Assembly (NCBI GenBank): GCA_040954595.2
Contig: CM082580.2
Location: 5,074,783-5,138,782 of the forward strand
DNA from: Balanoglossus misakiensis
Taxonomy: Eukaryota > Animalia > Hemichordata
Direction of reading: 5' to 3'
Length of the DNA: 64,000 nt
Position numbers and translations under genes: made by a program. This document shows, in pieces, positions 20,788 to 63,436 of the stretch (the stretch's first letter is position 1; each line of letters begins with the position of its first letter). The notes below the pieces were generated by a model that saw only the letters and a program-made list of their open reading frames with translations, made no database searches and had not been told where the DNA came from.

Positions 20788-23225
20788 CTATTTCGTCACG
20801 TGATGTTCCTTCTTATCGTGTATATTCAACGATTTCTGACTGATGAAGGAAATCCGACAAATGTCACATGACACCTCCGTAGGCGCACCGTGGGCCTTGA
20901 TGTGTTGTCTCAACTGTACGTTCCAACAGCTCTGGTATTTACACTTGCCACACTTGTAAGGTTTTTCGCCCGTATGCGTTCTCTCGTGCGACACAAGCTG
21001 CGCTTTCTTGGCGAACGCCAAGTCGCATGATTTGCATTTGAAAGGTTTTTCGCCAGTATGAATCCTCTGATGGTTTCTGACATGTCTGGCGTCTGTGAAC
21101 CCTTTGCCACAGAACTGACACTTGAACGGCTTGATGTTCAGATGCTTCCTCTTGTGGCTTTCGTATGTTACCTTATCGAGATACTGCTTGCCGCACAACT
21201 CGCACAGAATTCTCTTTTGGCTGCTGGCTCCAACCTCCCTGTGTTTCTGAGTTATGTGGCGCGACAAATAGCTCTTTTTTACACTCTCCCCGCAGATATA
21301 ACACAGTACATTTTCCATCTGGTGATGCTTTAGGTGACACTTAAAATCTTGTTTGAGCGCATACCTCATGCTGCAGTCTTTATGAGGACAGGCAAACACC
21401 TTTTCTGACTCAGAGGCGTGGCACCTCAAGTTGTGTTTATCCAAATTAGACTTGCGGTATGCTGCATACTCGCACTGGTCACACTTAAAATTAAGTGGAC
21501 GGTGTCTGGCCTTCACATGGTTTTCCAGCATTGACTTCATGGTTGTTTGGAAATCGCACTCATTGCAAATGAAAGAAGTGGTGCGGCTCTTTCCCTTGCT
21601 ATGCTTGAGCACGTGTTGCAGGAGATCCCGGTTTGTGGCAAACCTCTGACTGGGGCACTTTTTACACCCTAAACATCCATTTTCCAACACTTTTAACATT
21701 TTCTTTCTGTCATCTAGCATGCTTTCAACTGTGGAATCATCGAAATGTTCTGCACTTCCATCCAAGTCCTCGAAAGAGTCGTATTCGCTGTCATAGTCAC
21801 TGCTATCATCGTCACTGCTACCTCCAGAGCCATCTTCACTGTCTTCCATATCAAAGTCCATGTCCTCTGTAGGCCTTACTCGTTTCTCCTCTTCATCTGA
21901 GCTGCTGCTGTATTTCCACAAATCATCATCATCATCTTTCCCCTCCTCCTCCTCCTCCTCCACATCATCATCATCATCTCTTCCTTGACTGACACTATCT
22001 CTTTGTTCACTGTCGTTACCATCTGCAACACCAACAGACGTTTGGTCCTCCTCCGACACAGATTGGCCATCTGCACTGGCCGTTGCATGAGGCCCGTCAT
22101 TGCTACCTGCATATTCCTTCCACCACGGAATGAGTTTTTTGTTCATCCCCATAGATGCCTTCCTGCGCGGTCTTCCGTGCGCGCCAAGTTCTGTCACTTG
22201 CTGCTCAGAAGTGCTTTCGACATCTGGAGTGCCTGTGGTCGTTTCCTCACCATCCTCTGCACTGCCTGCTGCTTGATCATCCCTGTCAATTAAATATCAG
22301 TAAACTTGGTGAACAAACTTGCATCTATACTTACCAGTGTTCTCCCAAGGAATATCTGATAGCATATTAGCTAATAACAATAGTGTTCTCCCAAGGAATA
22401 TCTGATAGCATATTAGCTAATAACAATAGGAGTGATTGTTATGTTAATTATTCTATTGTTGCCGAAGTTGTGAGGCTACAAAACTGCAGCAAGGTTTTGC
22501 CTTGTAACATCGTGTGGGGACGTTTGTCGTCAACACACACAGTCACATTCGACTGTGTCAACATACCAGGCAAAACTTGAAAGGAAATTATGAAAAGTTT
22601 ACTATTATACGTACAATCCCCCCTGATGACTTGCATGCACACCGAGTTGTGTTATTTGCTGCTCGGCAGTGCTGTCGGCCTCTTCAGTGCTTCCAGCCTC
22701 ACCCTCCTCTTCACTGCTTGCCATTTGATCATCCCTATAGATGAAATATCAGTATCCTTGGTGATCGAAACCTACACACACACCAGACTAGAGTTCTCCC
22801 AAGGAATTTCTCTTAGCATAAATAATGGAGGTGATTGTTATGTTAATGATTTTTATTGTTTTGCAAAACAAAAGTGGCCTTTTGCTTTAATTGCTCTGGG
22901 GAAAACGAACACTTCTCAGTTCGTTGTGTTGCCATTTATTGTTTGTTTTCAAAATATTATCAATATCATGCCTTTTCACAAATTTTAACAGGAAAGTCCT
23001 GGAGTTCAAACACTAATGATCCTTTGTCCTCCTGTGAAACACTGCTGAACAGTCAGTCAGAGTAACTCACTCTCAGCAGTCATCTAAACCAAAAGTCAGT
23101 TATGAACTTCTTATGTTTACCTGCAGAGATTTGGTGGCTCTGGGGTTTCATCCCTATCTTTAGAAGAGTCCAATAATCGTTCAATGTCACCTGCAAATAG
23201 TGGGTGAGAAGAGGCAAGTTCATAC
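20788..23225 (-). CDS. C2H2 zinc-finger gene/terminal exon B (10 fingers); own first exon degenerate
   Basis: Terminal exon 22282-20788 has a phase-2 acceptor and an intact ORF. An upstream 105-nt phase-2 exon at 23225-23121 encodes YELASSHPLFAGDIERLLDSSKDRDETPEPPNLC. Confidence 0.8.
22336..22427. repeat. 46-bp tandem duplication in intron
   Basis: AGTGTTCTCCCAAGGAATATCTGATAGCATATTAGCTAATAACAAT occurs twice; the paralogous intron near 17711 has a single copy. Confidence 0.85.
22615..22734 (-). other. Chimeric 120-nt phase-2 cassette exon (remnant of a deleted fifth ZF unit)
   Basis: The acceptor and DDQMASSEEEGEAGSTEEADSTAEQQITQLGVH are homologous to the terminal-exon 5' ends. They are fused to a first-exon-type donor TT|GTACGTATAATAGT. 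Confidence 0.55.
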
Positions 23226-23617: not shown

Positions 23618-24044
23618 TAGTCTCGGTTACCCAGAGCCCTCTGCTTCTTCCGTTAGGCACTCCAGAAAGAGGGTCTGGGGAAACCCGGTAGACAAATCGC
23701 CGGGCGGAATCGGGACAACTGCGATGCATGACGGGAGCTTAATATTCCAAAATGGCGACGTCCTGCGCGCGAACCTCACGGCCGACATGTATGTCATACG
23801 ATAAAGAAAACATGCTGAGAAGTGCTAGACCTGCTAAAACTGTCTACAAATTGAAAAGAGAGAGAGAAGTTTGGCAAATAGTTTTCTAATATCGTCATAT
23901 CATAATATCGTATCGAATATTAAGCTCCCGTCATGCATCGCAGCTGTCCCGATTCCGCCCGGCGATTTGTCTACCGGGTTTCCCCAGACCCTCTTTCTGG
24001 AGTGCCTAACGGAAGAAGCAGAGGGCTCTGGGTAACCGAGACTA
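23618..24044. mobile_element. Non-autonomous DNA transposon with 130-bp TIRs and 9-bp TSD (Academ/AcademH-like)
   Basis: TIRs at 23618-23747 and 23915-24044 are nearly perfect and begin with TAGTCTCGG. The TSD GGAAAGTGT lies at 23609-23617 and 24045-24053. Confidence 0.85.
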
Positions 24045-27474: not shown

Positions 27475-29861
27475 CTATTTTGTCATGTGATGTTCCTTCT
27501 TATCATGTATATTCAATGATTTCTGACTGATGAAGGAAATCTGGCAAATGTCACATGACACCTCGGTTGGTGCACCGTGGGCCTTGATGTGTTGTCTCAA
27601 CTGTACGTTCCAACAGCTCTGGTATTTGCACTTGCTGCACTTGTAAGGTTTTTCGCCCGTATGCGTTCTCTCGTGCGACACAAGCTGCGCTTTCTTGGCG
27701 AACGCCAAGTCGCATGATTTGCATTTGAAAGGTTTTTCTCCAGTATGAATCCTCTGATGGTCTTTAAGATTTCTGGCCTCTACGAACCCTTTGCCACAGA
27801 ACTGACACTTGAAAGGCTTGATGTTCAGATGCTTCTTCTTGTGTTTTTCAAATGACACCTTACAGACAAACTGCTTGCCGCACAGCTCGCACAGAAACCT
27901 CTTCTGGCTGCTGGTCTTAAACTTCTCCCGGTGTTTTCCAGATACGTGTTGCGACAAAAAGCGCTTTTTCACACTCTCCCCGCAGATATAACACAGTACA
28001 TTTTCGTCCTGGTGACCCTTCAGGTGATTTGTCAAATCTTGCTTGAGTGCATACCTCATGCTGCAGTCTTTATGAGGACAGACAAAAACCTTTTCTGACT
28101 CAGAGGCGTGGCACCTCAAGTAGTGTTTATCCAAATTAGACTTGCGGTATGCTGCATACTCGCACTGGTCACACTTAAAATTAAGTGGACGGTGTCTGGC
28201 CTTCACATGGTTTGTCAGCGCAAACTTATGGATTGTTTGGTAATCACACTCTTTGCACGTGAAAGAAGTGTTGTGGCTCTTTCCCTTGCTGTGCTTGATG
28301 ATCACATGTTGCAGGAGATCCCTGTTAGTGGAAAACCTCTGACTGGGGCACTTTTTACACCCTAAACATCCATTTTCCAACACTTTTAACATTTTCTTTC
28401 TGTCATCTAGCATGCTTTCAACGGTGGAGTCATCGAAATGTTCTGCACTTCCATCCAAGTCCTCGAAAGAGTCATATTCGCTGTCATAGTCACTGCTATC
28501 ATCGTCACTGCTACCTCCAGAGCCATCTTCACTGTCTTCCATATCAAAGTCCATGTCCTCTGTAGGCCTTACTCGTTTCTCCTCTTCATCTGAGCTGCTG
28601 CTGTATTTCCACAAATCATCATCATCATCTTTCCCCTCCTCCTCCTCCTCCTCCTCCACATCATCATCATCATCTCTTCCTTGACTGACACTATCTCTTT
28701 GTTCACTGTCGTTACCACCTGCAACACCAACAGACGTTTGGTCCTCCTCCGACACAGATTGGCCAGCCGCACTGGCCGTTGCACGAGGCCCGTCATTGCT
28801 ACCTGCGTATTTCTTCCACCACGGAATGAGTTTTTTGTTCATCCCCATAGATGCCTTCCTGCGTGGTCTTCCATGCGCACCAAGTTCTGTCACTTGCTCC
28901 TCAGAAGTGCTTTCGACATCTGGAGTGCCTGTGGTCGTTTCCTCACCATCCTCTGCACTGCTTGCCGTTTGATTATCACTGTGGAAAAAAATCAGTATCC
29001 TTGATGATCAAAGTTGCTTCTACACTTACCAGTGTTCTCCAAAGGAATTAATGATAGAACATTAGGTGCGATTGGAATATTAATTATTATTGCCGAAATT
29101 CATGAGCAACGGCTGTTATGCTCAGGGGAGAACACATACTGCCTACACGCGTAGCAATTAAGGATGAATGGTCAGTAAAATTGAAGTATTGACATTTCTT
29201 TTAATTGTGCACAACTTCTAAAACTGTAGAAAGTGCTGGTGGTTCAAGCTCTCTTGAACTGCCATCCTAAGTGAAACCCTAGGCTCATGTAATACGGTCA
29301 GTGTAATCAGTGTTCCATATAGTTGTCCAAAAAAATGTCATATGTGAATGTTTACCTGCAGAGTTTTGGTGGCTCTGGGGGTTCATCTCTCTTTGTAGAA
29401 GAGTCCAATAATTGTTTGATGTCGTCTGCAAAAAGTGGGTGAGAAGAGGCGTGTTCGTACCTAGAAAGAATCAGAAATTTGTTCTAAGTCAAGTGCTGAA
29501 TAACTCTATCAAATTTTCCTGATATTGTACATGACACATTTTTAATGATACTACCGGGGGTGGTTGAAATGGAGAAGTCTGAAAAGAGTCTACGACTATA
29601 TACGTACAACCGCATAAGGAACTCGGCCGTTCCGTTTGCGCTGCAGTGGAGACGAGACTGCAATCTGCGCCAACGAAAATACTGGTCTCCAACTTGAAAT
29701 AACTGCTGCGATTTAGGCAATCCACGTTTCGTCCCCACAGTCTTCTTGGCACATTTTGGTCGTGAAGTTTCTTTGGTACTAGCATGTTCTATGGTAAAAA
29801 TCGCTGGTTTCTTGGAGGCGCGACGGGAACGCTTCAGAGAAGTCTTCTGCTCGTCCTCCAT
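27475..29861 (-). CDS. C2H2 zinc-finger gene C (10 fingers), 3 exons
   Basis: Exons at 29861-29608 (..FQVGDQYFRWRRLQSRLHCSANGTAEFLMRL), 29460-29356 (YEHASSHPLFADDIKQLLDSS..) and 28978-27475. All junctions are phase 2 and in frame. Confidence 0.85.
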
Positions 29862-33372: not shown

Positions 33373-33790
33373 CTGTGAACGGAAGGGGCAGTGAATACCC
33401 AAAATCAGTTCAAGCACGCCCATAGTGGCACTCCTATTGTACAGGAACACGTTGAGGTTCTATGCGCCTTGGCGACAGATTTTCAGAAAATTTTTACTTC
33501 TCCAACCTTTTAATGTTTTGCTATATGGTAAAACCTAACAAGCCCTGCCTTGAATATGTATATAGTCTTGCATCCAATCAAGTACATGAACTGTGCGATT
33601 GACTTTCTCAGCAAGTGTATCAGGTCATTCACATGCAAAATACATACATGACGCTAGGTTGTCTTTTTCGTCAGACCCCCAAAATGCGGGATAGATACTA
33701 AGCCAGGGGTATACTGGTAGCTATAGTTTGTGGAATTTGAGTAGAGATAAAGCTCAACTTCTACATAGTTTGTAATGGGCAACAGCTCAC

Positions 33791-33904
33791 CTGTCAGGTT
33801 GATGAAATGACCCGTCTGCAGACAGCGTGGGTTGCTCAGCTTCGGAGGATGGTCCATGGCTTTGTTGAACATTAAACATCTTAATTTGCGATGAGAGAGA
33901 AATT
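33791..33904 (-). CDS. ZF locus cassette exon, 114 nt, phase 2-2
   Basis: CAG|..|GTGAG boundaries; encodes ISLSSQIKMFNVQQSHGPSSEAEQPTLSADGSFHQPD. Confidence 0.55.
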
Positions 33905-34022
33905 CTGCAGAGAAAACAAAAAAAGTAACCAACTTTTGATATCTAGACTACAGCTGTTGGTAACAGCTAAAAGCATGTATCATCACTGCACACAATCACG
34001 CAGGTTTTTTCATGACACTTAC

Positions 34023-34133
34023 CGTTTTTTCAGTGGCTCTCCGATTTCTCGTCTTTCCTGGTCTTCGTATTCCGGCCACTGACATTCCGGCCACGATTCA
34101 CGTTCTGTTTTGAGATGCAGGTGCTCAAGGTAC
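34023..34133 (-). CDS. ZF locus cassette exon, 111 nt, phase 2-2
   Basis: TAG|..|GTAAGT boundaries; encodes YLEHLHLKTERESWPECQWPEYEDQERREIGEPLKK. Confidence 0.6.
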
Positions 34134-34326
34134 CTAACAAGACAGAAATTTTTATTAAATAAAAGGGAAAATGTTCAAAAAATCAGAAGCATAATTTTAT
34201 GCCGGAGTATGCAGCACAGACTTCGAGACCAGGAATCCACACGTTTTCCCCGATGGCTCACCAAAATACAAGGCTAACGGACATGCATCATACAATTGTG
34301 GAAATCTGAATGACAACACAACATAC

Positions 34327-34425
34327 TTCACTTTCTGCAGCTCTGTACTGTCTTTGGTTCTGTGCGCGTCACTTTCGGAAGAGGTATCAGTCTGTTCAGT
34401 TCCCAAGCCTTGACGGTCTTTGTAT
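34327..34425 (-). CDS. ZF locus cassette exon, 99 nt, phase 2-2
   Basis: CAG|..|GTATGT boundaries; encodes YKDRQGLGTEQTDTSSESDAHRTKDSTELQKV. Confidence 0.6.
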
Positions 34426-34741
34426 CTGAACAGGTATAATGCAAAACAGATTGGATGAGACACTATTAGTATTGTGTGGCATACAAAAACAATTAGATAC
34501 ATTGTAATCACTCTTAGGCATTTGACCACATGGCTGTATGGCTATACACACAGAAAACACACATGTGCAGTAGTAAACACAACAGGCACTCACATATTAC
34601 CAGTACTATAATCATATTCATAAGTACATTGGTAGCTCTTGTTGTTCTGTCCGATGTTCCCTATCTCACTTGTAGCATACAAGCAAACCTCATGCCCATA
34701 CCCCCTAGGGCATATGCAAGTCCAAATGACACAACACTCAC

Positions 34742-34834
34742 TTCTTTTTCTGTGGCTCTGCCATCTCTCGCCTTTCACAATCTTCACTTTCCGACTCCGT
34801 CTCCCCTCTTCCAACATCTTCATATTCGTCGTAT
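34742..34834 (-). CDS. ZF locus cassette exon, 93 nt, phase 2-2
   Basis: CAG|..|GTGAGT boundaries; encodes YDEYEDVGRGETESESEDCERREMAEPQKK, similar to the 34023-34133 exon. Confidence 0.6.
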
Positions 34835-35135
34835 CTGTAAAGTTTACATAAATCTGTGGAAATGTCTACTCACAATAGAAACAATAACAATAGTGACAAT
34901 TGACTTCCGTATTGCATTGTTGTGGGAAATCAAAAGAAAGTTCCATGGCCTAATTTTAGACAAAGCTGTCCCCTTTTCAAGTTTTTGGAACCCATATTTT
35001 TTTTCCTTACTTGAATATACACAGTTTTCACAATTTGCAAATGTTTATACATATTATGCATATGGTTTTGTGGTCAGTTCTATGTATACACATAGTCCAG
35101 ATAAACAATGACATTTTTATGGTGCAAGACATTAC

Positions 35136-35258
35136 CTTTCCCTTTTCACGTTGTGTGATGAGATCCCTGGGGGTGGTACCACAGGGAGTTCGAGTATATG
35201 TGACGGCTCTCTTCTCGGCCCAGTTGATAAATCCTCTGCACCAGACATGCAAGAGTCT
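35136..35258 (-). CDS. ZF locus cassette exon, 123 nt, phase 2-2
   Basis: CAG|..|GTAAT boundaries; encodes DSCMSGAEDLSTGPRREPSHILELPVVPPPGISSHNVKRE. Confidence 0.55.
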
Positions 35259-36262
35259 CTGTAACAATAACAATGAAGAGAGACCAAATCAAATAAATGT
35301 GAAAATATACCACTTTGGTGCAATAGCAAAAATTAAAAGATATTACCGGTACATTTCAACGAAAGTGTCCCAAAAATTGGTGCTGTGACACAGACTTGGC
35401 TTAGGGTCAAGTGGCTAAATGTTACGGAGTAACGGTCTCAGAACAAATCTTTGTTGGGCCTTCCGTATTTTCATCTCTTGTCAAAATAACGGTGTTACCA
35501 TTGGCTGGGTTCAATAAGAAATCAACGGGCCAGGCAGACTTTAAAATGGGATGGTCAGATTAGCACTTTTACAATAACATGACTGCTGCACACAAGTCGC
35601 CATACACTATGAATTTTCACCGTACCCTGATCAAATGCTGTAAATTTACAATGACCTTACAGTACAGCATACTGGCTCATACACTATAGGCAAATTGTGT
35701 GGTAGAAAACACACTTTGAGTCTACCCACCTATCAGCTTCACCCGAAGATGCGTCTGACATTCCTGGGTTTTCAGAGTTTTCTTCTGCCACAACCCGGCC
35801 TTCACTGTTTTGCCCAGCGGGAAAACTATTGCCTTCCCAGGTCAATTTGACCGGGAATACTTGAGGATCTACATGTCTTTTTTTCAACAGGCCATAAAGA
35901 AATGCAACAAGTTAGACAAGAACATTGGGCCGGGAAAGTTCCGTCCTTCATAATGATTGTCACTATCTATGATTATTGTTAGGCAAGGGAAAAAATCCTT
36001 TTCCTCAAATTCAATATGTCTTTTTTAATCACTCATTAATTTGCTTTGCAAAAATATACTGAACATTCTTTTTTTCTCCATGGCTTTATCAGATATAAAA
36101 CGAAGCACCAATATTCCTTCCTGTCACAGTGTACACTACACCTGCATTCTACAGATTTGACCTGTTTCTTTTTGCAATTGACAATGAAGTTTAATAGACT
36201 CCTTTTCAATGAACATGACTTTGAGATACTGAAGAGACGTGTACAAATAATGGAACACTCAC

Positions 36263-36361
36263 CTAGTCCCTTGTTGCTCAGTTTCTTGACTTGCACGGTA
36301 ATGACCTCCTTCTGACAAGGGATCTGACTGCAATGACTTGGGGTCCTGATGTTTATAGTAC
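36263..36361 (-). CDS. ZF locus cassette exon, 99 nt, phase 2-2
   Basis: CAG|..|GTGAGT boundaries; encodes YYKHQDPKSLQSDPLSEGGHYRASQETEQQGT. Confidence 0.6.
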
Positions 36362-36986
36362 CTGTAAAACATACGATTACGGTACAGATCAGCACTAAGA
36401 TTCTAACTGGGCTACCTTTGGGATAATCCTAGGCATCTAACTGTCAATCTTTGTACAAGTTGCTTGCATGAATGATTTGAAGTGGGAGCCAAAAGACTTG
36501 GGAACCAAGCAACCACTTCCTGTTGGAATATGCAGAAACACATCACAGGACATGATTGAATGATGAACAATAAGTCCCCCCCCCCCCCGTAATCAACAGG
36601 TCCTGCCCTAAGGCTCGGCCAAGAACAAGATGGTGTCTCATGAATGTTCTTATGTTTACATGTGTCGAGAATATGCCATCTACCATGATATTTGGGGAAT
36701 ACTAAATTATACCCTGCCAAAATTTTAGCGTCTAATACAATGTACATATAGACAGGAAGCTTCACTCCGCGATCGGGGCTATTTTCGCTTTGTCGGCGTA
36801 TGTTGCGCGCTTCTTCCGGGTCTACTTTAGATACACGGCGAGTGCAACAGACGCAGAGACCACGCACACTCATACCGCTTATTTTCCGAAAGCGAATTTC
36901 TGGTGTGCCAATGCCCGCGCCCGTTCAGGAAGTTCATGTCGGGTCACCAGCCAGGCTGTGATATAAATTTTTATCTGCAGACTTAC

Positions 36987-37210
36987 GAATCAATCATCAC
37001 CATTGCCAATTCGGGACTGGAAAGCCCCGTGAGCCCCTTCAACTCCATCCACCTTCCGATCTGATTGCCGATGTATATTTTGCAACGATTTTTTTGAAGG
37101 TTACTCTCCCGCCTTCGCAACCTCTTAGCTTCGGCTGTTTTACGCGGGCGTCCTCGCCCCCGGCTCTGCTGCTTTTCGCAATTTTCGCCGACTTCACTGA
37201 TCGACGCCAT
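36987..37210 (-). CDS. Alternative first exon: AT-hook plus ZNF653/692-like N-terminal domain
   Basis: Encodes MASISEV..RGRGRPRKTAEAKRLRRRESNLQKNRCKIYIGNQIGRWMELKGLTGLSSPELAMVMIDS and ends in the phase-2 donor TC|GTAAGT. Confidence 0.75.
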
Positions 37211-38135
37211 ATTGTTTCAGTCTTTCTACACGAGCATGCGCATATCGTCGCATTTTCTGTATCCACAGATTTATACAGGCGTCGCAATGCAGTCATGTTT
37301 TGATCTATCTGGCTGCAGTTTTTACATGTTTCATAAAACGAAATAAATACCCATCCACTTTTTGTAGAATAGAAATTTTATTGAATCGTTAAAGCGACGT
37401 CGGCTGTCACTTCCTTGCATTATTTTCATGATTTTAATTTCATAAACATATATTGCCTTTGGTTTATTTACATCCGGCCCAGGGAAAGTTAAATTTTAAC
37501 CGAGTTTAAAGCAGGGGCAGCAAAGCCGCATGGGTAATCCCCTATGAGTGGTCCTCTACATGGTTAATCAGTAAAGTAAAAGTAAATTGTAATATCATGT
37601 GAAGTATCAACCACACTGTTTGCAATGATGTACATTGTAGCGATTACACTTTGCACAATACTTTGACTTGCAAGCAACTGTGTCCATAGACATTGTTCAA
37701 TATTCTGATGTTTCTGCAAGTACATTTTAATAACAGTGACTTGGTGCAGACAAGATTAGTCGTGAATAACTCAAGATATGTAACCTCGATAAAACAGCCA
37801 AGAATGTCTGTCACTGTAAAGCCCTAATAATTAGAGATGCTCATTTCTGCACACATGTAACTTGCTCTATGTCCATTCATTCTCATACCTTACAACACTA
37901 CATGTGACCATACTCTTTGTTCTCTTGGGACATTATCTATGATAATGCACTGGTACCAGTGCAATATCTGGATATTGCACTGCACCTGGCATAATAAGAT
38001 TCACTACGACAAACAAGATAGCTATGACAGGAGGTACTTTAATTCATGCAAAAAATACAAAGCAAATTAGTTGTTATCCATTTTGAAGGATATGCTGCCT
38101 CCGGCGGGGAGAACAGCTTTCACACACGGATTCAC

Positions 38136-38443
38136 CTGAAAGCTTGATTTTTTCGACGTACCAAAACTTCCTTGAAGCACTTTGCTGACTTCGAACTGTT
38201 GCTCGAGACTTGTACGCTGAAAAGAGAGCTGCTACTTACAGAAGAGGATGTGTGCAGTGGGGGCTGCATTTTCGCCAAGTCACATTCCGTGACCGTTGGG
38301 TTATGTACGCTATCTTCGACGAGGCTATCAAAATCTTGGAAAATCCAGTCCATATCGCCACCGTCATCACCTTCGCTTTCGCTTGGGTGTCGGAACGTGC
38401 TCTGGGTAATGAAAAGCTCGTGCTCGTCGCTACTTTCGGCCAT
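38136..38443 (-). CDS. Alternative first exon, acidic (possibly Crypton-transposon derived)
   Basis: Kozak context ACCATGG; encodes MAESSDEHELFITQSTF..KNQAFR with phase-2 donor AG|GTGAAT. CCAAT boxes and a hairpin lie upstream. Confidence 0.55.
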
Positions 38444-38649
38444 GGTGTTTGTCTGTCGAAGGTTGAGTTCCGAATGATGATGGAAACGTGGCACCTCAAT
38501 GACCACGTGACAAATGCCCTGGCTGACAAGTATCCAATCGAAATGAGTCATACACCAGGTGCATTTTGCGACGCTTGTGATTGGTTGATGTGATTGAGAA
38601 GTTGTTTAGCATATATCTAGATCACAGATGTTGCGACGTGTTGTAAGCC

Positions 38650-38720
38650 GGATAATGTACTCGTGTCGTGCAATCGTTCGTTCAATATCTGAACGATTGC
38701 ACTCCACTCGTACATTATCC
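38650..38720. repeat. Imperfect palindrome/hairpin (possible transposon terminus)
   Basis: GGATAATGTAC..GTGCAATCGTTC pairs with GAACGATTGCAC..GTACATTATCC. Confidence 0.7.
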
Positions 38721-39257
38721 ATTACTTATGCCGCGGTTACTAGTAACCGTGCTTATGCATTGCATTAAACGGGGCAAAAACGACCACACACTCCGTCGTA
38801 ACTTAATTTCAAAGTCATGCATGATTTTCTATGATTCAACATGGCACTTAACATGGGTCATTTCAGGCTGCTTGAAAGTGGTCCTCCAGAAATGCCACTA
38901 AATTTCACTTTGTGGTCAAAGTGCATTTCTGGGTAGGATTTGAGATAAATAACAACAATCTTACATTGGGTTCACGCAAAAAGTGATCGAAATTAATGGA
39001 GGACACTTTTTAAACCCGTAGGTATAGTATATTAGAGATACATTCTATTCCCCATTCTCTGTATTCAACTCGTATATACGAATTATCTATAAAGTGCTCG
39101 CTCGCAACATAATAGCACGATTTTCGCGGCTTCACCGCTCGTGGCGCACTTCGTGTGCCCTGAGCGATGTCTGGCAAGCGAGGCTGCGTTTTGCAGGGCT
39201 CGACTGAGCTCTGTTGTTCAGTGCACAGCTACTCAAACGGTCACATGGTGTCCTCAC

Positions 39258-39559
39258 CTTGTGGACTGGAGAGTTGCTGTAAGATCTCCGCTCGCGTTTC
39301 CCAATGTCCGACTGTCGCCCTCATTTTGCGCCTGATGTAGTGGGACATCGACGTGGGGAAAACAGTCGCGACATTTTCCCCTGTGCAAATCCAACAAATG
39401 TTCAGCAAATTTTCCGTTAGACGCTTTCGAATAGTGGACTGCCTTCGCTTTCTTCCACATTTCAAGCGTATCGTATAAGTAGATTCTGGTTTTGTCCCTC
39501 CTTTTCACCCAAGCGGGTGTCTTTTCACGATCTCCGACACAGATTATGGTCGCCGCCAT
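39258..39559 (-). CDS. Alternative first exon: ZNF653/692-like domain with HxxxCxxC (paralog of 18016-18347)
   Basis: Start context AAGATGGCGGC; encodes MAATII..RRDKTRIYLYDTLEMWKKAK..NGKFAEHLLDLHRGKCRDC.. with phase-2 donor AG|GTGAGG. Confidence 0.72.
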
Positions 39560-39642
39560 CTTGTCTGTTGTTTGACAGCACACTGCCTTATGGGATTGAC
39601 TGTTCATTTCCCCCATAGACAATGATCGATGGCCACGGCCAT

Positions 39643-39936
39643 GGTAGCGTTGAGCTAAATATTGCTATTTTATAACTTTCAGCGAGCAGAATCGCTTTAA
39701 GTACAGTCAGAACAAGGTCTGTTTGTGCACAGGCTAAATTTTCGTCCCGGCAAGTCCATTGATTCTTTTCGGGAGGTCAAAAATAGCGCCCTCGGTGGTG
39801 ATTTTGATAAAATTCATGCCAAAGTGTTGGGAATTTTGAACGCATCTCAAGATGCTATTTCCAAATACCCTACATATGATCTGGTAAATCCTACTGAACA
39901 TCAACTAAGGTCTCAAAATATTAGGCAATGCACTAC
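39643..39936. mobile_element. Interspersed repeat/MITE copy 1 (GGTAG..CACTAC ends, Kolobok-like)
   Basis: Highly similar to 44671-45031. Confidence 0.65.
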
Positions 39937-40978
39937 TTTTTTATGAACTGTAAGTTGTACTGAGCGACTAGTAGCTCTGCTTGGCACATGATGGTCACCA
40001 ATAGTGAAGTATGCCTTGCTTCCAATCCCGAGTTGCAACAAATAAAAATGGTGACGCACTTTGAACATCCCTGGTTCAGAAGTCATCGGATTACAATCAA
40101 AGTACACACACACACACACTGTTTAAGGGAGCCATCATTATTTATGGCCTGGGGACACAAAGGAATATGAGAGGGGTCTCTCAAAAATGGAAAGCAGGAA
40201 GGAGTAGGGTTTCAAAATAAAGCGAAGAGGAAGAAGGTGTGATTCAACCTGATTACTGAAGTAGACTAGTGAACATGTTTGTACTGGGCTCATGCTGTAC
40301 ATGACCACAAGGCTTCCCATAAAACTCATGGAATTACACACATAGTCTGAGCCTAATGTATATTTGGTCTGATTATAGCACGAAGCTGCTGGGCCCCCTT
40401 ATCACTATTGATGGTCAAGTCTAATGAATACACCATGCACCTGACCTGTCAATTTTTAATGTTAAATGTTTTCACTGTATCTGGAAGAAAAACTCTGTAA
40501 TGTTTACAAAAAGAATATTGTCTGAACCATTTTCTTGCACAAGTTAACCCAAAACACATGCTTCAGATTGGGTTTTATGTTACATGAAAACTTCAACTCT
40601 ACCTAAAATCAACTCTGATGTAATAACATGCGAGAAATGGATATCTGGTGAAGCACACATACCTTTACAAATTAGTGGTCATTTTTATTTCTATTACAAA
40701 ACGTGCAGTGAAGTTAGCTGCTATTTCCTTACATGCCGCATTATGATTGGTCGGTTTATAATTAGTTTGGAGCCAGGTGCATGACCTGCACTGGTTGATG
40801 TTTTGATGGAGGGGGTGTCATTGAAAATTTGTTAGAAATGGGGGGGGGGGGGGGGTACTGAGATTCTGCATGCTTGGCGGGAGAGGGTGTTACTCAAAAT
40901 TTTAGTTTCAAGTGAAAATCCTTCAACCCCCCCCCCCTCCCCCGGCCGTAAGTAATGGCGGCTCCCTAAATCACATAC

Positions 40979-41190
40979 CAGTCGATCAGGAACGTTGCAA
41001 CTTGATGGTGCGTTTTCAACGAGCGTGTTCGTTTTATATGATTCCACCGACCGATTTCAGAAAATATATTTATGCTGCCTGCTTGTTTTCGGGCCCGTGC
41101 ACGCTTCCGTTCTGTCTCACTCAACCGAGGACGGCCACGCGTCCGTTTCTGTTCCGGACCCACATGCAGGTCCAGGGTGGACTCCGCCAT
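40979..41190 (-). CDS. Alternative first exon: AT-hook plus ZNF653/692-like N-terminal domain
   Basis: Encodes MAESTLD..KRTRGRPRLSETERKRARARKQAGSINIFSEIGRWNHIKRTRSLKTHHQVATFLIDW and ends in the phase-2 donor TG|GTATGT. Confidence 0.72.
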
Positions 41191-41892: not shown

Positions 41893-44308
41893 ATGTCTGT
41901 GCGTACAATGACTGGATATCATACCCGTCTGTCATGTTTTATTGTGTATCTCTTCGTCTTGCGACAGTCAGGTAAGCAGATTACGATGGTGGTGGTTCAT
42001 ATATGTTTGTCCCGACTGTTTTTCTCCATGCAAACGAAGCCTCTTTTTAAAAGACTTATCACGCGAATTACAATCATTCCGAATGTCAAATTTGATACAA
42101 TTTCGCCTCGTCTGGCATTAAAAACGATATGGTGTGAATCCTTACTTTTGATATAGATTTTGAAAGTTGCCTTGAGCGAAATATGGGGAAAAAAGCTTTT
42201 CAAGGAGCATACTACCTAAAAAAAAAATTAAGTTCTAATACTGCCCTGAATGTTGTATAGTTTGCGGCAAATACAGTCATCTGCGACATTAGTTGCCGCA
42301 GGACAGGTATATACACGAATATGTTGGGTATTTCGAAAAACTACAGTTTCTGACTGGACTGATTGGTACAACTCAGAGAAGGCTGCTCAAGATCATTTCG
42401 ATTCTGAAAAAATTGAAGATATCCAGCATGTTCATCCAAATCTTGCGTGTGACAACCCAACCGCTATGGATGCAGCCACCGTAGATGGCGTACCTGCACT
42501 GGAAACGGGCGATGTATTTCGCCAGTTCAATTCCAGAGGACTACATTGCCAAAACGAAGATCAAACAAATAAAACATGTGAAGATTATAAAGTTCGTTTC
42601 TGCTGTCCAGGTAGAGCCACTGGTTATTACTGCTGTATCTTGTGCTTGTCACGACAACTGATTCTGAATGAATGACGTCATTGGCATCACATTCGTACGT
42701 GCACACTTTCCTAATGACAGAAGCAACAAAACATAAAACTTGGATGTTTATCAATTTATGTTGTTCAGAGAAAACGTTCTGACAAATAATTCAAACTGCA
42801 AGTGGCGTTTCAGATCCTCGAGTCATTACATAAGCGCATCTGAATTTTTGGTACTGGAGGTAATATACACATTTTGTCAAAATACCAACCGGGTATCCAC
42901 GTTACCTCTGACAACATAGTGTCCACAACATATTGGCGCCATTTTAAATGGTCATTCTTTTTAGGGTCACGCGGAGCAACGACTTGTCTGACTGGGGACT
43001 TTTTGAATCAGTATCCAATCTTGACATCAACTGTTATCAAAATACCAGAGGTACGTGTGACCCATCTTTTGAAAAGCATATAATATTTTGATAGAACTTC
43101 TTGACCTTTGCCGTTAGGCCTACTGCAGAACGGTGCGGTAGTGCGAGTGGGCATAAGTGGAAAAACTGCGAAAGCTAGATAGGTTTTAGACTACCCTAAC
43201 TCCTTTTGTGTATTACTTTTCATAGAATACCAGAGTGGGGGTAGCAATATACAACGTATCTGATTTTCAGCGCAATGAACATGACATGAACGTCAACGCC
43301 ACATCTGTCGAAATTGTTTACGGGAACAAGGTAAATCACGTCGTCCAGTTACATGCAAGCATGCATGCATGTATGTATGTATGTATGTACAGTTTGCCAG
43401 CTCTGAAATGGGGTTCAATAACTAAGCAATGTTTTTACAACTTACAAGTCGTTCCCCACACAACTTATACTTTGTAAATGCGCACATATTCACACAAATG
43501 GACAATCAACTTCATCTAGTCAGGTTACAAGCGATTTTTTTTCCACTGCTTGAGTGATGATAGTGTCATCCACCATGAAATACATGTGTCACAGAAAAAA
43601 AAACCCGCATTTTATGCAAAATCTGAATGCAGTGATAAACAGCACTTTATGTTTGTCAATTTTGTTGGCATCGTCTTCTCTAACTGGTGCAACACATATA
43701 CCTTGTTTTTGTTTCAGTACAATCGCTTTGGTGTTGGCGATGATGACGCTCGAATCCTTGTCGCCGCAATTCTATCAGCAGACATAACGCCCCATTTCAA
43801 CCTGACCATACATGTCACAAGAAATGTAAGTACAAAAATGGCCAAACCGTCAACCTATTATTCTAATATATGCCATCAGTCCATCAGCGAATGACAAGTG
43901 TAATGTTTCAGATGTGTGCTGTTTCTTTAGCTTTTCTGTCCCATCACCGGAACAAGCATACCGTGTGAATTATGAAATAAAGTCACCATGTGAGATTTTT
44001 TATACGTGCACGATGTCGCAAGTAGCAGTTCGATCCCAAACATCTCGGCATTTTATTTGTAGTTTTGTCTTGTTTTACAGAATAGTACTATTGAAGCGTT
44101 TGCATTAAATGTAGAGCTTCAAGATATAGACCAGTGGCCACCATACTATAACAGGACATGTGAATCAAAGGAAAGACCATACGTATGTGTGTCTGTTTAA
44201 TATTTTTTGACATCCATAATGTGTACACACATTGTACAATTTTGTTGTCCAAGCAAAAGGTTTTATTTGCGAAGAACAACTTCACATGACTAATTGTGCG
44301 TGTAATTT

Positions 44309-44349
<41 letters not shown>

Positions 44350-47300
44350 GCAAATGTCCACGCCCGCAACTCTTCAAGATTAAATATTGGCCCTGGTTAA
44401 TGGATTGGAAACTCAACGGAATCTGGTCGTCTAAACACCCGTCTTCCCACCGCACGAAGAACGACCCTGTTACTGACATGAGCAGTTCATCAAAGTGTAA
44501 GTACCAACTAATGTGATATTGTTCCACCTTCAAAGTTTGCATTTGTAACTCAACACCCACATCTACTAAAAAACGGATAACAAGAACACAACGAATGACT
44601 AAAGACATATAATAGCAATTCGATGATCAGTGGGCGCAAGACCTGTAATTCATTTCCCATAAACGACAATGGTAGCGTTGAGCTAAATATTCCTATTTTA
44701 TAACGTTCAGCGAGCTGAATCCCATTAACTGCAGTCAGAACATGGTCTGTTTGTGCACAGGCTAAATTTTCGTGCAGGCAAGTCCATGGTTTTTTTTTTG
44801 GGAGAGGTCAAAATAGCGCCCCCAGTGGTAATTTTGAAAAAAATTATGCCAAAGTGCACAGTCACCTCATCTTGCATTACTCCGCTGTGTACAACAACAT
44901 TACACCACATTCTCTCACACCAGTGGGAATTTTGAATGCATCTCAAAATGCTCTCTCCAAAAATGCTACATATCCATGGTAAATCCTATTGAGCATCAAT
45001 TCAGGTCTCAAAATATTAGGCAATGCACTACTTTTTATACGAACCAGGAAGTGAATTACAGGTCTTGTGCCAGTGGATGCTAAACAAATGGAATTACAGT
45101 CAACGGTGGACAAAACAATAAGCTCCTCTTCTTTCGTCCATAGATATGTGTTGTATTTCTTATGTCACGATCTGTCTTGTCCATGTGGCTTAACTGGGGG
45201 AGGTCGCGTAAATCCTGAGATTGTGTTTCTACGGTGTCCGGAGTACATAGAGTTTGGAGTACCCTGTACTACTACAACGGTAGTATATTATGAGAAACCA
45301 AGTTCGGACACGAAAAAGGGCTGAACACATCAAAAGCATAAAATTAAAGATCCACCCCCCCCCCAAAAAAAAGTACAAACCTTTGAAAATACCTTACAAA
45401 TTCAAACCTTTACTCTGGTCACTCTATTTACTTGACAACGCCATATATCGGCGATAATTCACTGTATCGGTATACTTCTCCATATTCATATGTCCAGTGC
45501 GCCATTAGGATGTGTTGTCGCGCAAAGGATAAAAAACACCGATAACAACAATATTGCAGCTGGCAAAGTCAAGTGTTCCATACACACTCAACTCTGACAG
45601 CAAACGCATTCAACATCTTATTTCAGGCACTGTGCATATGTACTATCCCGTACCTCTTGCGCTGCTTGGAAATAGTCCGGATGATTTAGTGGTGGAAGTT
45701 ACAGACAAAACAACTGGCAATGTAGGCGAGTTGAACTTCCTAACCGAAAGTGAATTCGAAATTTTCCACTTGATCCCACTTGCTCGCTTAGACGTAAGTT
45801 TTTTTTTACCACTGGATTTCAGTGGCCCCTGTAAGCTGATACTCAAACGATAATTTCGTATTCAGAAAATATCCTTTGTGTGCACAAATACGCATTTCTG
45901 CAAAATTGTTCATGTAACCTTGGTTAATAATGTTCAGGACAGATGTTGCATAATAGTACATGATCGTCCGCATCAAAGTATTTATCGGACTAAGTTTAAG
46001 GTGTATGTGCGACGACGTGTGGCTTTTCAAGTGATTTTTTTATTGAATTGAATTGTATTGTATTGTATTGTATTGTATTGTATTGTATTGTATTGTATTG
46101 TATTGTATTGTATTGTATTGTATTGTATTGTATTGTGTTGTATTGTATTGTATTGTATTGTATTGTATTGTATTGTATTGTATTGTATTGTATTGTATTG
46201 TACTGTAATGTATTGTAATTTTAAGAATATCAAACAACTTGTAAATGTTTCCAATGCAAATTCTGAAAACAAACAATTAATAAAACTGTTGATGCTTGTG
46301 TTTTTTCTTGAAATACATCAGACTTTTTATCTTTTCAGTGGAACTTCCCTCCTGCCCGGCATTTTATAGACCTGCACTCTAATAACCGAGATTATATAGC
46401 AGAAAACATGTTATTGGAACTAGTAGTGCGAGGTTTTGACACACACCGAGACTGGATATATGATGTGTCTATTCGGGGACCGAGGATAACGATTCCTGCT
46501 TATGAGTCTTTTCAAATTGCGGTTGTCGGTAACTATGAACTTATCATTGCCATGACTGACTCGACCGTGACATATTCTAACTCTAAACCCCCTGGCTCAG
46601 TCTGTATCTAAAACTGGTCCTTCAACACATCATTCCGTCTATATATCTTATTATAAATCTCAGTTCAGCATTATGCCAATATCATTACGTCCGTTGTTCG
46701 ATGTTAGGCTGTTATTACTTTGCTGATAACACCAGAATATTGAACGGTTTGCGATTATTACAAAGTGTGTAGTCCAGCGTTACATTATGTGTCAAACGCC
46801 CAAGGTCAATATACGTCACACGACGGACTGTGCGCAGCAAATTTGAATAACAGTCACACTGGCATTCATCACACGGGGATGCACATTACCAGGTCTTCAA
46901 ACTGTGCCTTTCAATTTCGATCACAAGGTTGTCCGTATGGAACGTATGGAATTAAATGTGAAAAGGAATGCATTTGCAAGAATGGGGCAACCTGCCACGG
47001 GTGGAATGGTGCTTGTAAATGTGCTGTGGGTTGGCAGGGACCGGCGTGTGACATCCGTGAGTAAAAGCATGTGGATTTGTTTTTTTAACGACAGGTACAA
47101 GACAAAATGCGTATAAGTTTCAACTACTTATGTGTTGCTCATATTGTTAAACCACATTTGTATCACCGATGTGAACCGAATATACCCACGTGGTTGGTCT
47201 GTTATATGTAATGTAATGTAATGTAATGTAATGTAATACTGTTTAACCACGGCTCCAAGTGGTAAAACGTCTCTGTGAGAAATATAGGTGCAGTAAGTTT

Positions 47301-50300
47301 CATTAAATTGGCTGTTGTAATTTCATATCATCTTTGGCAGCCATGGCTCCGAGTGTCCGGCTATTTCCAGAGTCTTCTACTACAGTCCCGATTGGTGGTA
47401 ACATTCTTCTTCGCTGCCTTTTCATAAATATGAAGAGACACCGTTTTGACTGGCAGCATAATGGAGAATTGATCCAAGTAGGAAACAGGATACAAGATCT
47501 GTCTGCGGGGTGAATACGTGTATTAAACTTCTCCTTTTTGGATGGAATTAAATCATGTCCTTATGTGTACCCGAAAAATGCAAAATATCTATCCACCGTG
47601 CATTTCCATTCAACTTTCATTCAATATCTTGAAGATGTTTAAGCATTGCCATCTGCTTGTAACCATGCAAAGGAAAATGTTGCAAGTGTGGTTCTCTCAT
47701 CAGGAACATGGTAAAGAAACTAAATATATCAATGGCAACTAAGTCAGATGCGGGTATATACCAATGCGTTGGAACTGGATATAACACGGGCGACATCCTT
47801 ACTTCTAATGTTGCTGTAATTACAGTGGAAGGTTGGTATATCGGAATGGGAGCGTTACGAGATGAATTGGACGACCAATAGGCCACTTCCATGACCCATA
47901 TATGACCTGACGTCCTTGTACTTCCGTTGGTATGGGGTTGTCAAGGTTGAACATTTGGGACAAGAAACGTGCAAAGAGTCCATTTTGTAATTCAGTGCAT
48001 AATGTTGTGTTGACTTCAGCTGCAATTACCAACGGAAGTACTAGGATGAAAGGGCACATCGTGCTCAGGGGAAAACCGTTAATATAAGGCATAATGTTAA
48101 ATGTACTGAAGATTTTCATTCTTCCCCCTTTACTGGTAATGAAATAATGTGTCCAATTATGCATACCGGTAATGCCCAGGTAGTCGTTTTAACATTTCGA
48201 TCACCATCTGCACCTTCTTGGTTATTTGTGTCTGATAGGTTGCCAGGAAAACTTTTGGGGGCGTAATTGTACTGAGAAATGCGACTGTGTTCACGCTACA
48301 AACTGCACGCGGATTGGTGGATGCCAGTGTCTACATGGGTGGACGGGGAAGAGGTGTAATATAGGTAACTCGTTTGTTGAAGAATCACGGGCTAGTTGTA
48401 ATAACGACACACAAAAGCGTACAGCCCAGGAAAGTACAGAAGGCTAACAGTACAGTACAGTACAGTACAGTACAGTACAGTACAGTACAGTACAGTACAG
48501 TACAGTACAGTACAGTACAGTACAACAGACAACCTGCATAGCACATATAATTATAACAAGATCATCAAATCGGCGAAATCGAAAATAACAACAGTATCCT
48601 GTCCCACACATGTGCCACCAGTATTTATCAATTTCTGAGATGAGGTGAGAATATGCTGGGATATGTGTATGTAATGTACATTTCCCCCCAAACCACATAT
48701 TTTGTAAGCCATGTTACATTATAGTTAATCTTGCCTGTTTTATATTCTCAAACTAGATATTCAGAAACCGTTCATCACCAACTGCCCACATGACTTCAAC
48801 AAAACGGTGAAGTACCCTTCAGGAAGAGCCTATGTATCTTGGCAACCAGTAAGAGCAACTGACAATGATGGCATTGCCAACGTAACATCCTCTCATCTGT
48901 CCGGACAAGACTTTCCAGTTGGCACATCAGATGTCGTAATATCCGTGTTTGATCGTTGGGACAATTCAGACACGTGTAACTTTACGGTGACAGTCGAAGG
49001 TACTATATTTCGCCTTATTTAAAGGGTTTATGACATGCTTTGAAAAGTTTTCATTTTTCCCCATCTAAAGCTCACCTAGGGAACCCGTCTATGCATTGCC
49101 TATTGTGTCGGTTCCGAAAAATGTGCGCGAATGCCGGAATTTGTCCCCTTTTTTCATGCCTGTGATCAGGGAGCCACTTCGCACTCGAGCCAGGCGAAGG
49201 TATTTGCATATGGACAAACAAGTACACTACGTCGTAGTGTACCATTCTGTTTACAGTAAAGTGTAATTAGCGGTCCATGAGTAATTAAGTCCACAGACAA
49301 AGGCAAGCTACATAAACAGTGTTCAAAGCAAAGGAAGCCCTTGCCTAACATTACAGGCAGAGGATTTACAAAGGTGTGAAAGACTTTGTCCACATCAAGA
49401 TAAGTCTTCGGCTTAACATTGAAAAGCCGAAAAAAATCGACTGAGTTGGGTTAGGGGTACACGCCCACCCGCCACTTTTACTTGCTTGTTATCTAAGCAC
49501 AAGGGGCAAAACGCATTGCAAGATAGTAACATACGTTAACTTCAAGACCCAAAGAGTGATTTTACGCGTGGTTGTATAGGGCATGGCATGAGACCTTTAA
49601 ATATGTATCCGATGTTCTAGGGTTAGGGCTTATATTCATCCCTTGACATTTCAGACTTATTGGCTTCGAGAGCCAGTTACCTTTTGGTCAGAGACTAGAC
49701 ACATTTCTCCATGTAACACGCCTGGGTAACTCGAACATATAAACGCTGTGGGCATATTATATATACTTCTGCATATAAGATAGATGTTCCAGTGTTTTGT
49801 ATTGAATCCAGTACATTGATATTGGTTTGCAGCATTGTTTAATGAAGACGACAAAAAATCAGCCATTATGGTTATGGGAGTAGTAATCACATGTTTATTT
49901 ATGCTATTATTGACTATTATCGCGGTGGCTATGAGACGGAGGAGCAAGTCAAGGCAAAGACATCTCTATTCTCGGGTTGAACGTGCAGATAATCTATCGA
50001 AAATTCCGGTAAGGCATAATTAATTAATTCATTCATTCATTCATTCATTCATTCATTCATTCATTCATGTTTTGAGTGAATGTAATTGGCAGAGATATCG
50101 TGGAGCTTATATCTGTCGTATGCCTGTCTTAGAAAATACAATTTTGATAATGCACTTAGCCTTGCTGGCTATTATCTTTTACAGTCTCTTCTAGATTAAT
50201 TCACAAGACGATGTTGTATACAAATAATGACTTTGGGAGGGGATTGTTAAGATCTGTAAAATTCATAAGCATCATGTCTGTTATAGAGACACTTTTTGCT

Positions 50301-53300: not shown

Positions 53301-53624
53301 ATAATAGTATATCGAAAACCAAAACTATTACTATGGCCATTACATAGTAAACCATCGGTGTGTTTCGTTAGCTTTGTTATGTAGCAAATTCTTGACAATA
53401 TATAATACCAATTCATAGGTGATACCCCGTACTCCGAGCTTAAAACATTGGAGGCTTCCTACTTATGTGAACAATTGTGTAAAGGATATCGGATGCCGAA
53501 GCCCGATCATTGTACAGACGACATGTATGGACTTATTAGACATTGTTGGAAGGCAGACCCGGATGAGAGACCCGCAGCTACCGGTGTTGTTAATAACATA
53601 TCCAGGCTTCAACAATGTGACACG
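41893..53624 (+). CDS. TIE-like receptor tyrosine kinase (WxxW, EGF, Ig, EGF, HYR, TM, PTK domain), ~20 exons
   Basis: Candidate signal-peptide exon at ~41893-41971. Ectodomain: WxxW domain (SDWTDWYN..CEDYKVRFCCP) at ~42302-42610, EGF at 46928-47056, Ig at 47341-47831 (DAGIYQC), EGF at 48239-48364, HYR at ~48758-48999. TM at ~49860-49930. Kinase exons at 50287-53624 contain LGQGAFSKV, KAVK, HRDIAARN, DFG, PIQWMSPES, SDIWSYGVLLWEM and CWKADPDERP. The last exon and stop are not resolved. Confidence 0.85.
44310..44350. repeat. (TTG)n microsatellite
   Basis: Read directly. Confidence 0.9.
44671..45031. mobile_element. Interspersed repeat/MITE copy 2 (in RTK intron)
   Basis: Similar to 39643-39936, with an extra ~60-bp internal segment. 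Confidence 0.65.
46051..46200. repeat. (TATTG)n pentanucleotide microsatellite
   Basis: Read directly. Confidence 0.95.
48447..48522. repeat. (CAGTA)n microsatellite
   Basis: Read directly. Confidence 0.95.
50027..50066. repeat. (ATTC)n microsatellite
   Basis: Read directly. Confidence 0.9.
50744..50886. mobile_element. Long near-perfect palindrome (non-autonomous element, possibly Crypton-type) in RTK intron
   Basis: AGCAATAAAACACCCCCAGCCATGGTATACCAC..TTTTGACCAGTTCA pairs with TGAACTGGTCAAAA..GTGGTATACCATGGCTGGGGGTGTTTTATTGCT around a CTCGCTATCGCTCG core. Confidence 0.7.
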
Positions 53625-54628
53625 GTAGGACTATATACACTTTGCGTTCTGGTTTCGATTACATGTATAGCTAGATGTATACTAAGTGTCTGTGTTCTGC
53701 TTTAGGTGCGTGTTTTGTCAACATCACGTCGCTTTTTTTTTTCTATTGGCAATGTACATAGGATGTGAAGCAAAACATTCCTATCGGTAACAATTTGATA
53801 ACCCCAAAAATACATAGCTTTAATACTAGTCTGGAATCCAGACATGGTGTTTTTTTCAGAGATAGACTCACACGGTGTGTACGAGATAGACTCACGCACT
53901 CCGTGTGATATTATCTCTAAAAAAGCACACCATATATATTCCAGACTAATACGATCACTATGGACTCTGTGGCTCCATGGAGATTAGAAAAACTACATTT
54001 TAAAACGAGACAATGTATTCTCTGTACCAAATTGTGGTTGACGATGATGTTACTTCTGTCAGATGATGTGTACCTTTATTGATCATTGTCGCTCTAAGTT
54101 TAGTTGGGAAATTTTGTTAGCGTTTGTTCTGTGAACTTGAGTTGTCTTTTGTTCAGTTGTATATACGTGCGCTGCAGCCAGCCAGCGTGGACTTAGCTAT
54201 GGAAGTAGTTATTATATCTAAGGGACCAGCGTTGACCCTATCCAGAGAAATGTCAGCATGATTTAACAAACAGAACCGCAATTGCATTTCCTACTATCAG
54301 ATTTCCCTTTTTAATGCAGGGATTTTTCAAGTGAAGATAAATGCTGGTGCTGTGCCGTTTGCGTGTTGAAGAGTCTACCAGAACGCTGTTGATATTATTT
54401 AGAGATGCCTTTGTTGCCAGCATCAGACTGACGATGTATCCGTGGATACACGATGATCATAAACTACGCCATCAACTACTTTCACCTGATAGACGTCGAT
54501 GGCACAATACGTCGGTTGCTTGTTTTTTTCGCCCGTTGTAGTATCCTATGACCCCTGAAACACCCGCACGATAAACTTCTTGCTTTGGAAGCAGTTATTA
54601 TCACTCTGAGTTTAATGACTTAATACTA

Positions 54629-58868: not shown

Positions 58869-58903
<35 letters not shown>

Positions 58904-63400: not shown

Positions 63401-63436
<36 letters not shown>

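Follow-up and report, generated by a model that had tools for sequence, protein, structure and literature searches.

Predicted clusters of mutually exclusive exons (MXEs) and other tandem exon duplications are described in PMC3228551 and PMC5740500 as internal exons of like length and same phase that are homologous and of tandem origin. We analysed a 64,000-nt stretch of Balanoglossus misakiensis DNA (assembly GCA_040954595.2, contig CM082580.2, positions 5,074,783 to 5,138,782 of the forward strand), referred to as the window. Its minus strand carries a tandem series of four C2H2 zinc-finger genes (A-D), each with a long last exon. In gene D, the interval from the first exon (37210) to the zinc-finger exon (33372) contains six cassette exons, four of which start with Tyr. 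These exons shared the above features with MXE clusters. However, they encoded mostly disordered linker where such clusters usually vary a folded domain, a non-homologous exon interrupted the series, and no exclusion mechanism was found. On balance, the sequence favoured, if modestly, a tandem exon duplication giving linker exons that are included together or skipped independently, and not a strict choice of one among four.

Other described systems resembled this locus in part. Ptychodera flava proteins (XP_070565588.1/XP_070565587.1, here P0124/P0135, and XP_070552763.1, P0121) carried the N-terminal domain of the first exon (N-domain), a low-complexity linker and a homologous C2H2 array. In P0124, Tyr followed directly after the N-domain, as in gene D. 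P0124 duplicates the domain together with its Tyr linker, both in one protein, whereas gene D multiplied the Tyr exon only. The 5' cassettes of chelicerate sDscam and clustered protocadherin, as described in PMC4835542, also combine several 5' ends and frame-neutral variable exons with one constant 3' part. There, the exons are interleaved, each cassette being driven by a promoter of its own. In gene D, the first exons were grouped upstream, and no promoter-like island lay among the second exons. Several intact, phase-compatible first exons (E1a, E1b and E1c) faced one constant region, and a remnant like a lost paralog lay between E1b and E1c. In Drosophila mod(mdg4) and lola, described in part in PMC3228551, a dimer-type N-terminal module is joined to zinc fingers by alternative exons. 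In gene D, in contrast, the variable parts were the 5' end and the linker and not the DNA-binding end, there was no BTB domain, and no sign of trans-splicing was seen.

The preliminary description of this region had reported six phase 2-2 exons of 93-123 nt, four of them starting with Tyr, and both statements held (Table 1). All six exons were open on the minus strand and had normal GT-AG sites. Four Tyr-starting open 2-2 exons were present in 3.6 kb; Markov simulations averaged 0.15 and never exceeded 2 (0/300 reached 4). This statistic was picked after the remark in that description. When the window was tiled, 66/68 tiles held no or one such exon, and the remaining 2 overlapped the cluster. 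With any start, 11 open 2-2 candidates were counted against 4.3 expected (8/300 simulations). The excess of Tyr-starting exons was attributed to the homology of the copies. The splice scores of the six exons were 2.1-9.1 for acceptors and 1.4-7.5 for donors, with the lowest donor (1.4) at exon e. They were comparable with those of 11 kinesin exons in the window (acceptor −0.9 to 8.7, donor 1.8-6.7), which were the only calibration of generic weights set by the authors. Weak splice sites had been considered as a sign of alternative use, and this was rejected, as no such weakness relative to the kinesin exons was seen. The candidate seventh exon b had a good donor, and its acceptor (−6.0) was beyond the kinesin range. 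CpG depletion in the cluster was gene-body-like (0.50 compared to 0.49 in the kinesin body). Exons d, e and f were adjacent, while a was set apart from them by c and the doubtful b. The exons encoded 12-28% hydrophobic residues. In addition, exons f and c each encoded a match to the SUMO consensus (hydrophobic-K-x-E), and exons d and f ended in Lys-rich runs.

As judged from alignments, exons a, d, e and f are diverged tandem copies of the Tyr-starting second exon of the family, multiplied in gene D. They were assigned to this second exon because paralogs B and C each carry one Tyr exon there. Exons a and e were identical in 10/32 residues without gaps (1/500 shuffles), and the d-e and d-f comparisons gave DNA z = 5.3 and 5.7 (0/500 shuffles). 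The pairwise similarity of a-f and e-f was below significance. In the four-way alignment, the Tyr codon TAC was invariant, together with short runs further in, and Tyr was one of 3 invariant residues in approximately 30. The lengths of the Tyr exons (93-111 nt) differed by multiples of three. Duplication had earlier been proposed from a motif in two of the exons. The motif shared by d and f was real (73% over 60 nt), but the limit to two copies did not stand since all four Tyr exons were homologous. The copies were only ~20-47% identical in residues, and an assembly artefact was ruled out by this low identity. The homology between c and g was weak (60/5,000 for residues, 426/5,000 for bases). 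No relatives of the locus were confirmed among 95 and 152 pattern matches in metagenome contigs, and a word-indexed protein search with the linker gave no match.

The best surviving alternative was a mutually exclusive cluster made up of d, e and f, to which a may also belong, and in which each mRNA would carry one Tyr exon. The fingers would be the same, the end of the dimer helix and the linker would differ, and the choice might be made through competing RNA pairings by the donors. We consider it unlikely, although it is a possibility to be taken seriously. The Tyr exons had the properties by which MXEs are predicted (same phase, length within 6 codons, homology), and the Tyr codon was kept in 4/4 copies. 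A helix enclosing c and d, and covering the bases just past the d donor, was present in both the minimum free energy and the centroid folds. Tandem duplication can create selector/docking pairs, according to PMC6071210. On the other side, the mutually exclusive choice proposed earlier found no enforcing feature in the sequence. The reading frame stayed open across all 21 joins between exons a-g, and also wherever one of them was joined to the last exon. The introns were 118-1004 nt long, GT-AG and U2-type with no U12 branch motif, and the e-f intron was 193 nt. No enforcement by frameshift and nonsense-mediated decay, by steric closeness or by U2/U12 mismatch was seen. The position of c between a and d and the disordered content also spoke against exclusive choice.

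The docking/selector complementarity raised in the preliminary description did not clearly rise above chance. A common site was at null level, with 3/20 shuffles upstream and 4/20 downstream. The best duplex ranked 6/40 in a matched 3.6-kb null, and kinesin donor flanks, with −23.2 and −24.2, were as strong in 2/8 cases. An intron site at 35375..35400 on the minus strand paired with the donor flank of d at −23.7 kcal/mol and with that of e at −16.8, and the matched null was not beaten. For d, e and f together this site gave a borderline 1/60. The other 7/9 docking tests were at null level; when weighed against exclusive choice, 8/9 tests were counted as null apart from the borderline one. The fold of the whole region gave z −1.2. 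Under drift, Tyr would be kept in all three downstream copies with P 0.11-0.32, and the idea that the conserved Tyr proves direct splicing to a first exon was rejected, the conservation being not significant.

Three points favoured joint inclusion or independent skipping of the linker exons: their disordered content, the missing enforcer and the precedent in P. flava. The domain would be completed by the Tyr exon spliced next to the first exon, a in the default case, and the other Tyr copies plus c and g would add disordered, acidic or Ser/Pro-rich linker. E1c with all six exons would encode up to 794 residues in all. Some exons may be skipped independently as ordinary cassettes, and E1a would be an alternative promoter forced onto a or f, or an orphan. 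According to PMC5740500, most human MXEs fall within folded elements (87% in secondary structure), and disordered regions are where cassette exons are found; 1,399/6,541 MXE candidates were validated there, and 1,741 stayed open. Frame-neutral variable exons of sDscam are also skipped or multiply included (PMC4835542). As it stands, the locus is a clean, ordinary tandem exon duplication in the linker of a transcription factor, useful for annotation.

Several points weighed against joint inclusion. Homologous neighbours of similar length and the same phase are the standard signature of MXE candidates, which on the fly X chromosome is seen in only 0.56% of non-MXE exons (PMC3228551). The sequence TGTCAT followed the donors of d, e and f within the first 25 intron bases (57/20,000 null draws), a likeness that would also suit exclusive choice; it may be a duplication relic or a regulatory element. 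The 35400 site gave 0/60 for d and e, picked post hoc as 1 of 9 tests. The kept Tyr is a weak hint that each copy could join a first exon directly. A single Tyr exon suffices in paralogs B and C, the P. flava P0124/P0135 precedent consists of RefSeq annotation models, and the reservations on substitution rates given below belong here as well. TGTCAT also occurred near the c donor, further off. If reads gave one Tyr exon per mRNA, this would be an exclusive cluster lacking the usual sequence enforcers, at the end of a dimer helix.

A wider version of alternative choice would make the gene a combinatorial locus. First exons of two promoters would supply a dimer domain of ribbon-helix-helix (RHH) type, shared with Mutator-like transposases. 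One of the four Tyr exons, chosen alternatively, would finish its last interface helix, and a stop at the junction would limit the upstream promoter to two of them. This reading is distinctly unlikely. If true, one zinc-finger array would be provided with several dimer interfaces and linkers.

Coupling of promoters to exons was weighed next. E1a, E1c and E1b would each be spliced to their own second exon, all ending on one zinc-finger exon, with E1a joined to a or f, E1c to a, d or e, and E1b to a non-Tyr exon. The three first exons were intact, had phase-2 donors and were located in CpG islands; the observed/expected CpG ratio was 1.29 in E1a (0.28 in its downstream intron) and 1.27 in E1c. 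The preliminary description had given both Tyr-needing first exons, 41190 (E1a) and 37210 (E1c), a helix end completed by Tyr. This was only partly right, as 41190 fitted only a or f and 37210 reads MIDS, not LIDS. Since E1a ends with TG and a and f start with G, these two were the only Tyr exons usable by E1a. Joining E1a to a or f gave Trp, and joining it to b, c, d, e, g or the zinc-finger exon gave a TGA stop. The phase and frame of E1c fitted every downstream exon. The proposed pairing with particular first exons was therefore limited to the restriction on E1a, while E1c could join all. No convincing Tyr exon of its own was found for E1a, and those available scored poorly. E1a would thus need a 4.6-kb splice to a (or f); otherwise it is an orphan, which may be left from a lost upstream paralog.

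The arrangement of the locus argued against such coupling. Remnants between E1b and E1c suggested that E1a and E1b had belonged to an upstream paralog whose zinc-finger exon was lost, and the order was not cassette-like, as the first exons were grouped and the second exons followed. The second exons of B and C also start with G, so that the G start may be ancestral. We consider promoter coupling quite improbable. The UTR-like (untranslated region) and promoter-like stretches in Table 1 suggested the loss of a zinc-finger paralog in the interval from E1b to E1c; alternatively, they may be small repeats. E1b was approximately 39% identical to the first exon of gene A (18347).

Decay was considered as well, with d, e, f and b as decayed or rarely used pseudo-exons from old duplications. 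The acceptor score of b and the weakest donor, that of e, were in line with this. The survival of the copies was not, as four intact copies had P <= 0.003 under neutral decay (9 settings). The comparison of substitution rates raised in the preliminary description, measured among the copies in the window, supported selection. The proportion of nonsynonymous differences (pN 0.34-0.51) was lower than that of synonymous differences (pS 0.56-1.14) in 6/6 Tyr exon pairs, with pS saturated and the alignment made on protein, which biases toward low pN. In addition, the flanking introns had lost their likeness in 11/12 comparisons, while the exons kept it; the downstream flanks of d and e retained similarity. 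The Tyr exon copies look selected as protein, and decay is very improbable.

It is hardly credible that the extra Tyr exons are served by lost or distant first exons through trans-splicing, as in mod(mdg4): four Tyr exons face two Tyr-needing first exons and P0124 shows that whole domain-plus-Tyr modules duplicate, but simple exon duplication explains the count, the e-f intron leaves only 193 nt, no N-domain remnant was found in 33373-36986 (tblastn and hidden Markov model searches) or anywhere along the plus strand, and no CpG island lay among the Tyr exons, so that the lost partner exons suggested earlier are unlikely inside the cluster, and nothing in the window, including a partner exon on the plus strand, pointed to the trans-splicing suggested with them.

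The possible RHH-like domain of the first exon may be a more interesting lead than the exon cluster. A search with E1c gave 13 relatives among 1.84 billion representatives. Most of them were short open frames stopping at or just past the same place, presumably because an intron follows the domain. The full-length relatives, which were clam P0150 and P. flava P0130 and P0124/P0135, continued with Tyr. In P0130, the C-terminal part resembled PF20700 Mutator-like transposases, and the same domain headed this fragment. The P0124/P0135 models placed two domain-plus-Tyr-linker modules before the finger array. The first-exon domain matched no Pfam family beyond the AT-hook, and a search with E1c against longer proteins gave no match. 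The N-domain profile gave 0 matches at E<=5 against PDB sequences, and Foldseek with the N-domain model gave no match at E<=0.001.

The AlphaFold model of clam P0150 was used to place the Tyr. Its helix 59-74 included Tyr70, and the earlier claim that the Tyr finishes the last helix of the first-exon domain was borne out in this predicted structure. Only ~5 of the 30-36 residues of the second exon were predicted to finish the domain, the rest being low in hydrophobic residues. Structural alignments of the P0150 model gave Z 3.0-4.4 with identity <=16%, the best having Z 4.4 (rmsd, root mean square deviation, 3.5; 52 aligned). Approximately 23/50 structure rows were proteins that we take to be RHH or TCP, and one title named RHH. 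When two copies of P0150 residues 15-80 were predicted together, the score was 0.52 compared to 0.01 for the best control. Contact agreement between runs was at least 96%, the predicted local confidence (pLDDT) was at least 67, and the contacts were located at 37-40 and 66-70, including Tyr70. The mark for a dimer was reached by 21/30 solved pairs and 0/23 single chains of microbes, and by 17/29 eukaryotic pairs (animals 7/16). Among the eukaryotic pairs that lacked an older solved relative, only 1/7 reached it, and the pass of P0150 may therefore reflect memorisation by the predictor. These models predicted that the first-exon domain is an RHH-like dimer in the clam homolog. If true, this would suggest a dimerisation role for an unnamed animal domain, which occurs both in zinc-finger proteins and in a Mutator-like transposase fragment.

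The predicted domain shared a short strand, two helices and a predicted intertwined dimer with RHH proteins (the MatP C-terminal domain, MazE, NikR, ParD, FitA) and plant TCP. Apart from the low Z and identity, it differed in that an AT-hook and a long basic helix precede it, and in being an animal domain fused to zinc fingers or to the transposase fragment. A relationship to the human ZNF692/ZNF653/ZFP91 group may be considered, as these proteins would have a comparable basic N-terminal segment, an acidic linker and C-terminal C2H2 fingers; the zinc-finger array here was longer than theirs. None of these proteins was returned in protein and PDB searches with E1c, the fingers and the N-domain profile. 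No literature pairing ZNF692 with ribbon-helix-helix was found by title or abstract start, structure databases being outside this search.

Table 1. Exons and other features of the gene D locus and its paralogs (positions in the window)
Feature	Position	Strand	Description
First exon E1a	40979..41190	-	AT-hook-like motif and N-domain; ends TG, phase 2
First exon E1b	39258..39559	-	N-domain variant with Cys/His extension; needs no Tyr exon
Stretch like paralog C 3' UTR	37602..37746	-	77% over 82 nt at 37602-37683, looser from 37746
Stretch like paralog B upstream region	37482..37550	-	84% (75 nt); repeat-unit boundary or small repeat
First exon E1c	36987..37210	-	AT-hook and N-domain; ends TC, phase 2
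Tyr exon a	36361-36263	-	99 nt, phase 2-2, G then Tyr; nearest partner of E1c
Candidate seventh exon b	35876-35730	-	147 nt, phase 2-2, open; doubtful, weak acceptor
Non-Tyr exon c	35258-35136	-	123 nt, phase 2-2, A then Asp; weak likeness to g
Tyr exon d	34834-34742	-	93 nt, phase 2-2, A then Tyr
Tyr exon e	34425-34327	-	99 nt, phase 2-2, A then Tyr; weakest splice sites among the six
Tyr exon f	34133-34023	-	111 nt, phase 2-2, G then Tyr; internal in-frame repeat
Non-Tyr exon g	33904-33791	-	114 nt, phase 2-2, A then Ile; strongest splice sites
Gene D last exon	33372-31851	-	Acidic linker and C2H2 zinc-finger array; phase-2 acceptor
Paralog C second exon	29356..29460	-	Single Tyr exon
Gene C last exon	28978-27475	-	Zinc-finger gene
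Paralog B second exon	23121..23225	-	Single Tyr exon
Gene B last exon	22282-20788	-	Zinc-finger gene
Gene A last exon	~17658-16164	-	Zinc-finger gene

The C2H2 fingers of gene D passed the Pfam cut-offs, with 58.5 bits for PF00096 (cut-off 25.2) and 84.4 for PF13465 (cut-off 40). A protein search with the fingers listed 120 entries, and 1 of these was a close relative. The closest named relatives were P. flava proteins, 53-57% identical over ~260 residues. Gene D was 55-56% identical to A, B and C, a distance similar to that from the P. flava proteins. The acceptor of the gene D last exon was a tandem NAGNAG (33372 and 33369), and the P. flava isoforms P0124 and P0135 differed by one Ser at a junction that may match it.

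Paralogs A and B contained broken copies of the gene C-type first exon (18570-18470 and 24446-24300). An intact first exon of a second type was present in gene A (18347-18016); it has a Cys/His extension, as E1b does, and would be spliced directly to the finger exon. A Kolobok insertion, marked by TTAA plus RR ends (PMC9587614), was considered as a possible origin of this first exon and was rejected, as no TTAA-bounded terminal repeat pair was found in 3/3 regions. In gene B, no intact first exon was in view within the window. Upstream of the gene B last exon, at 22630-22860, the beginning of the zinc-finger exon was present once more as an incomplete copy. The first intron of gene B carried a 130-nt inverted repeat, 99% identical (23618-23747 and 23915-24044), likely a recent foldback insertion.

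Repeats were also present around the first exons of gene D. An interspersed repeat (86% identical, two blocks) was located at 39635-39948 and 44663-45044, the first copy directly upstream of E1b. A 36-nt inverted repeat (40120-40155/40938-40973) lay outside the cluster and would resemble transposon ends. Two palindromes (37931-37995 and 38650-38720) flanked a 103-codon frame at 38443-38135. The region 37930-38730 presumably resembles a decayed Crypton-type element, with no Pfam match. On the plus strand, at 9817-13100, 42250-53700 and 57234-63638, the open-frame motifs were those of genes that we take to be an FBXO30/40-like F-box gene, a receptor tyrosine kinase-like gene with EGF-like exons and a kinesin-2 gene (KIF3B-like).

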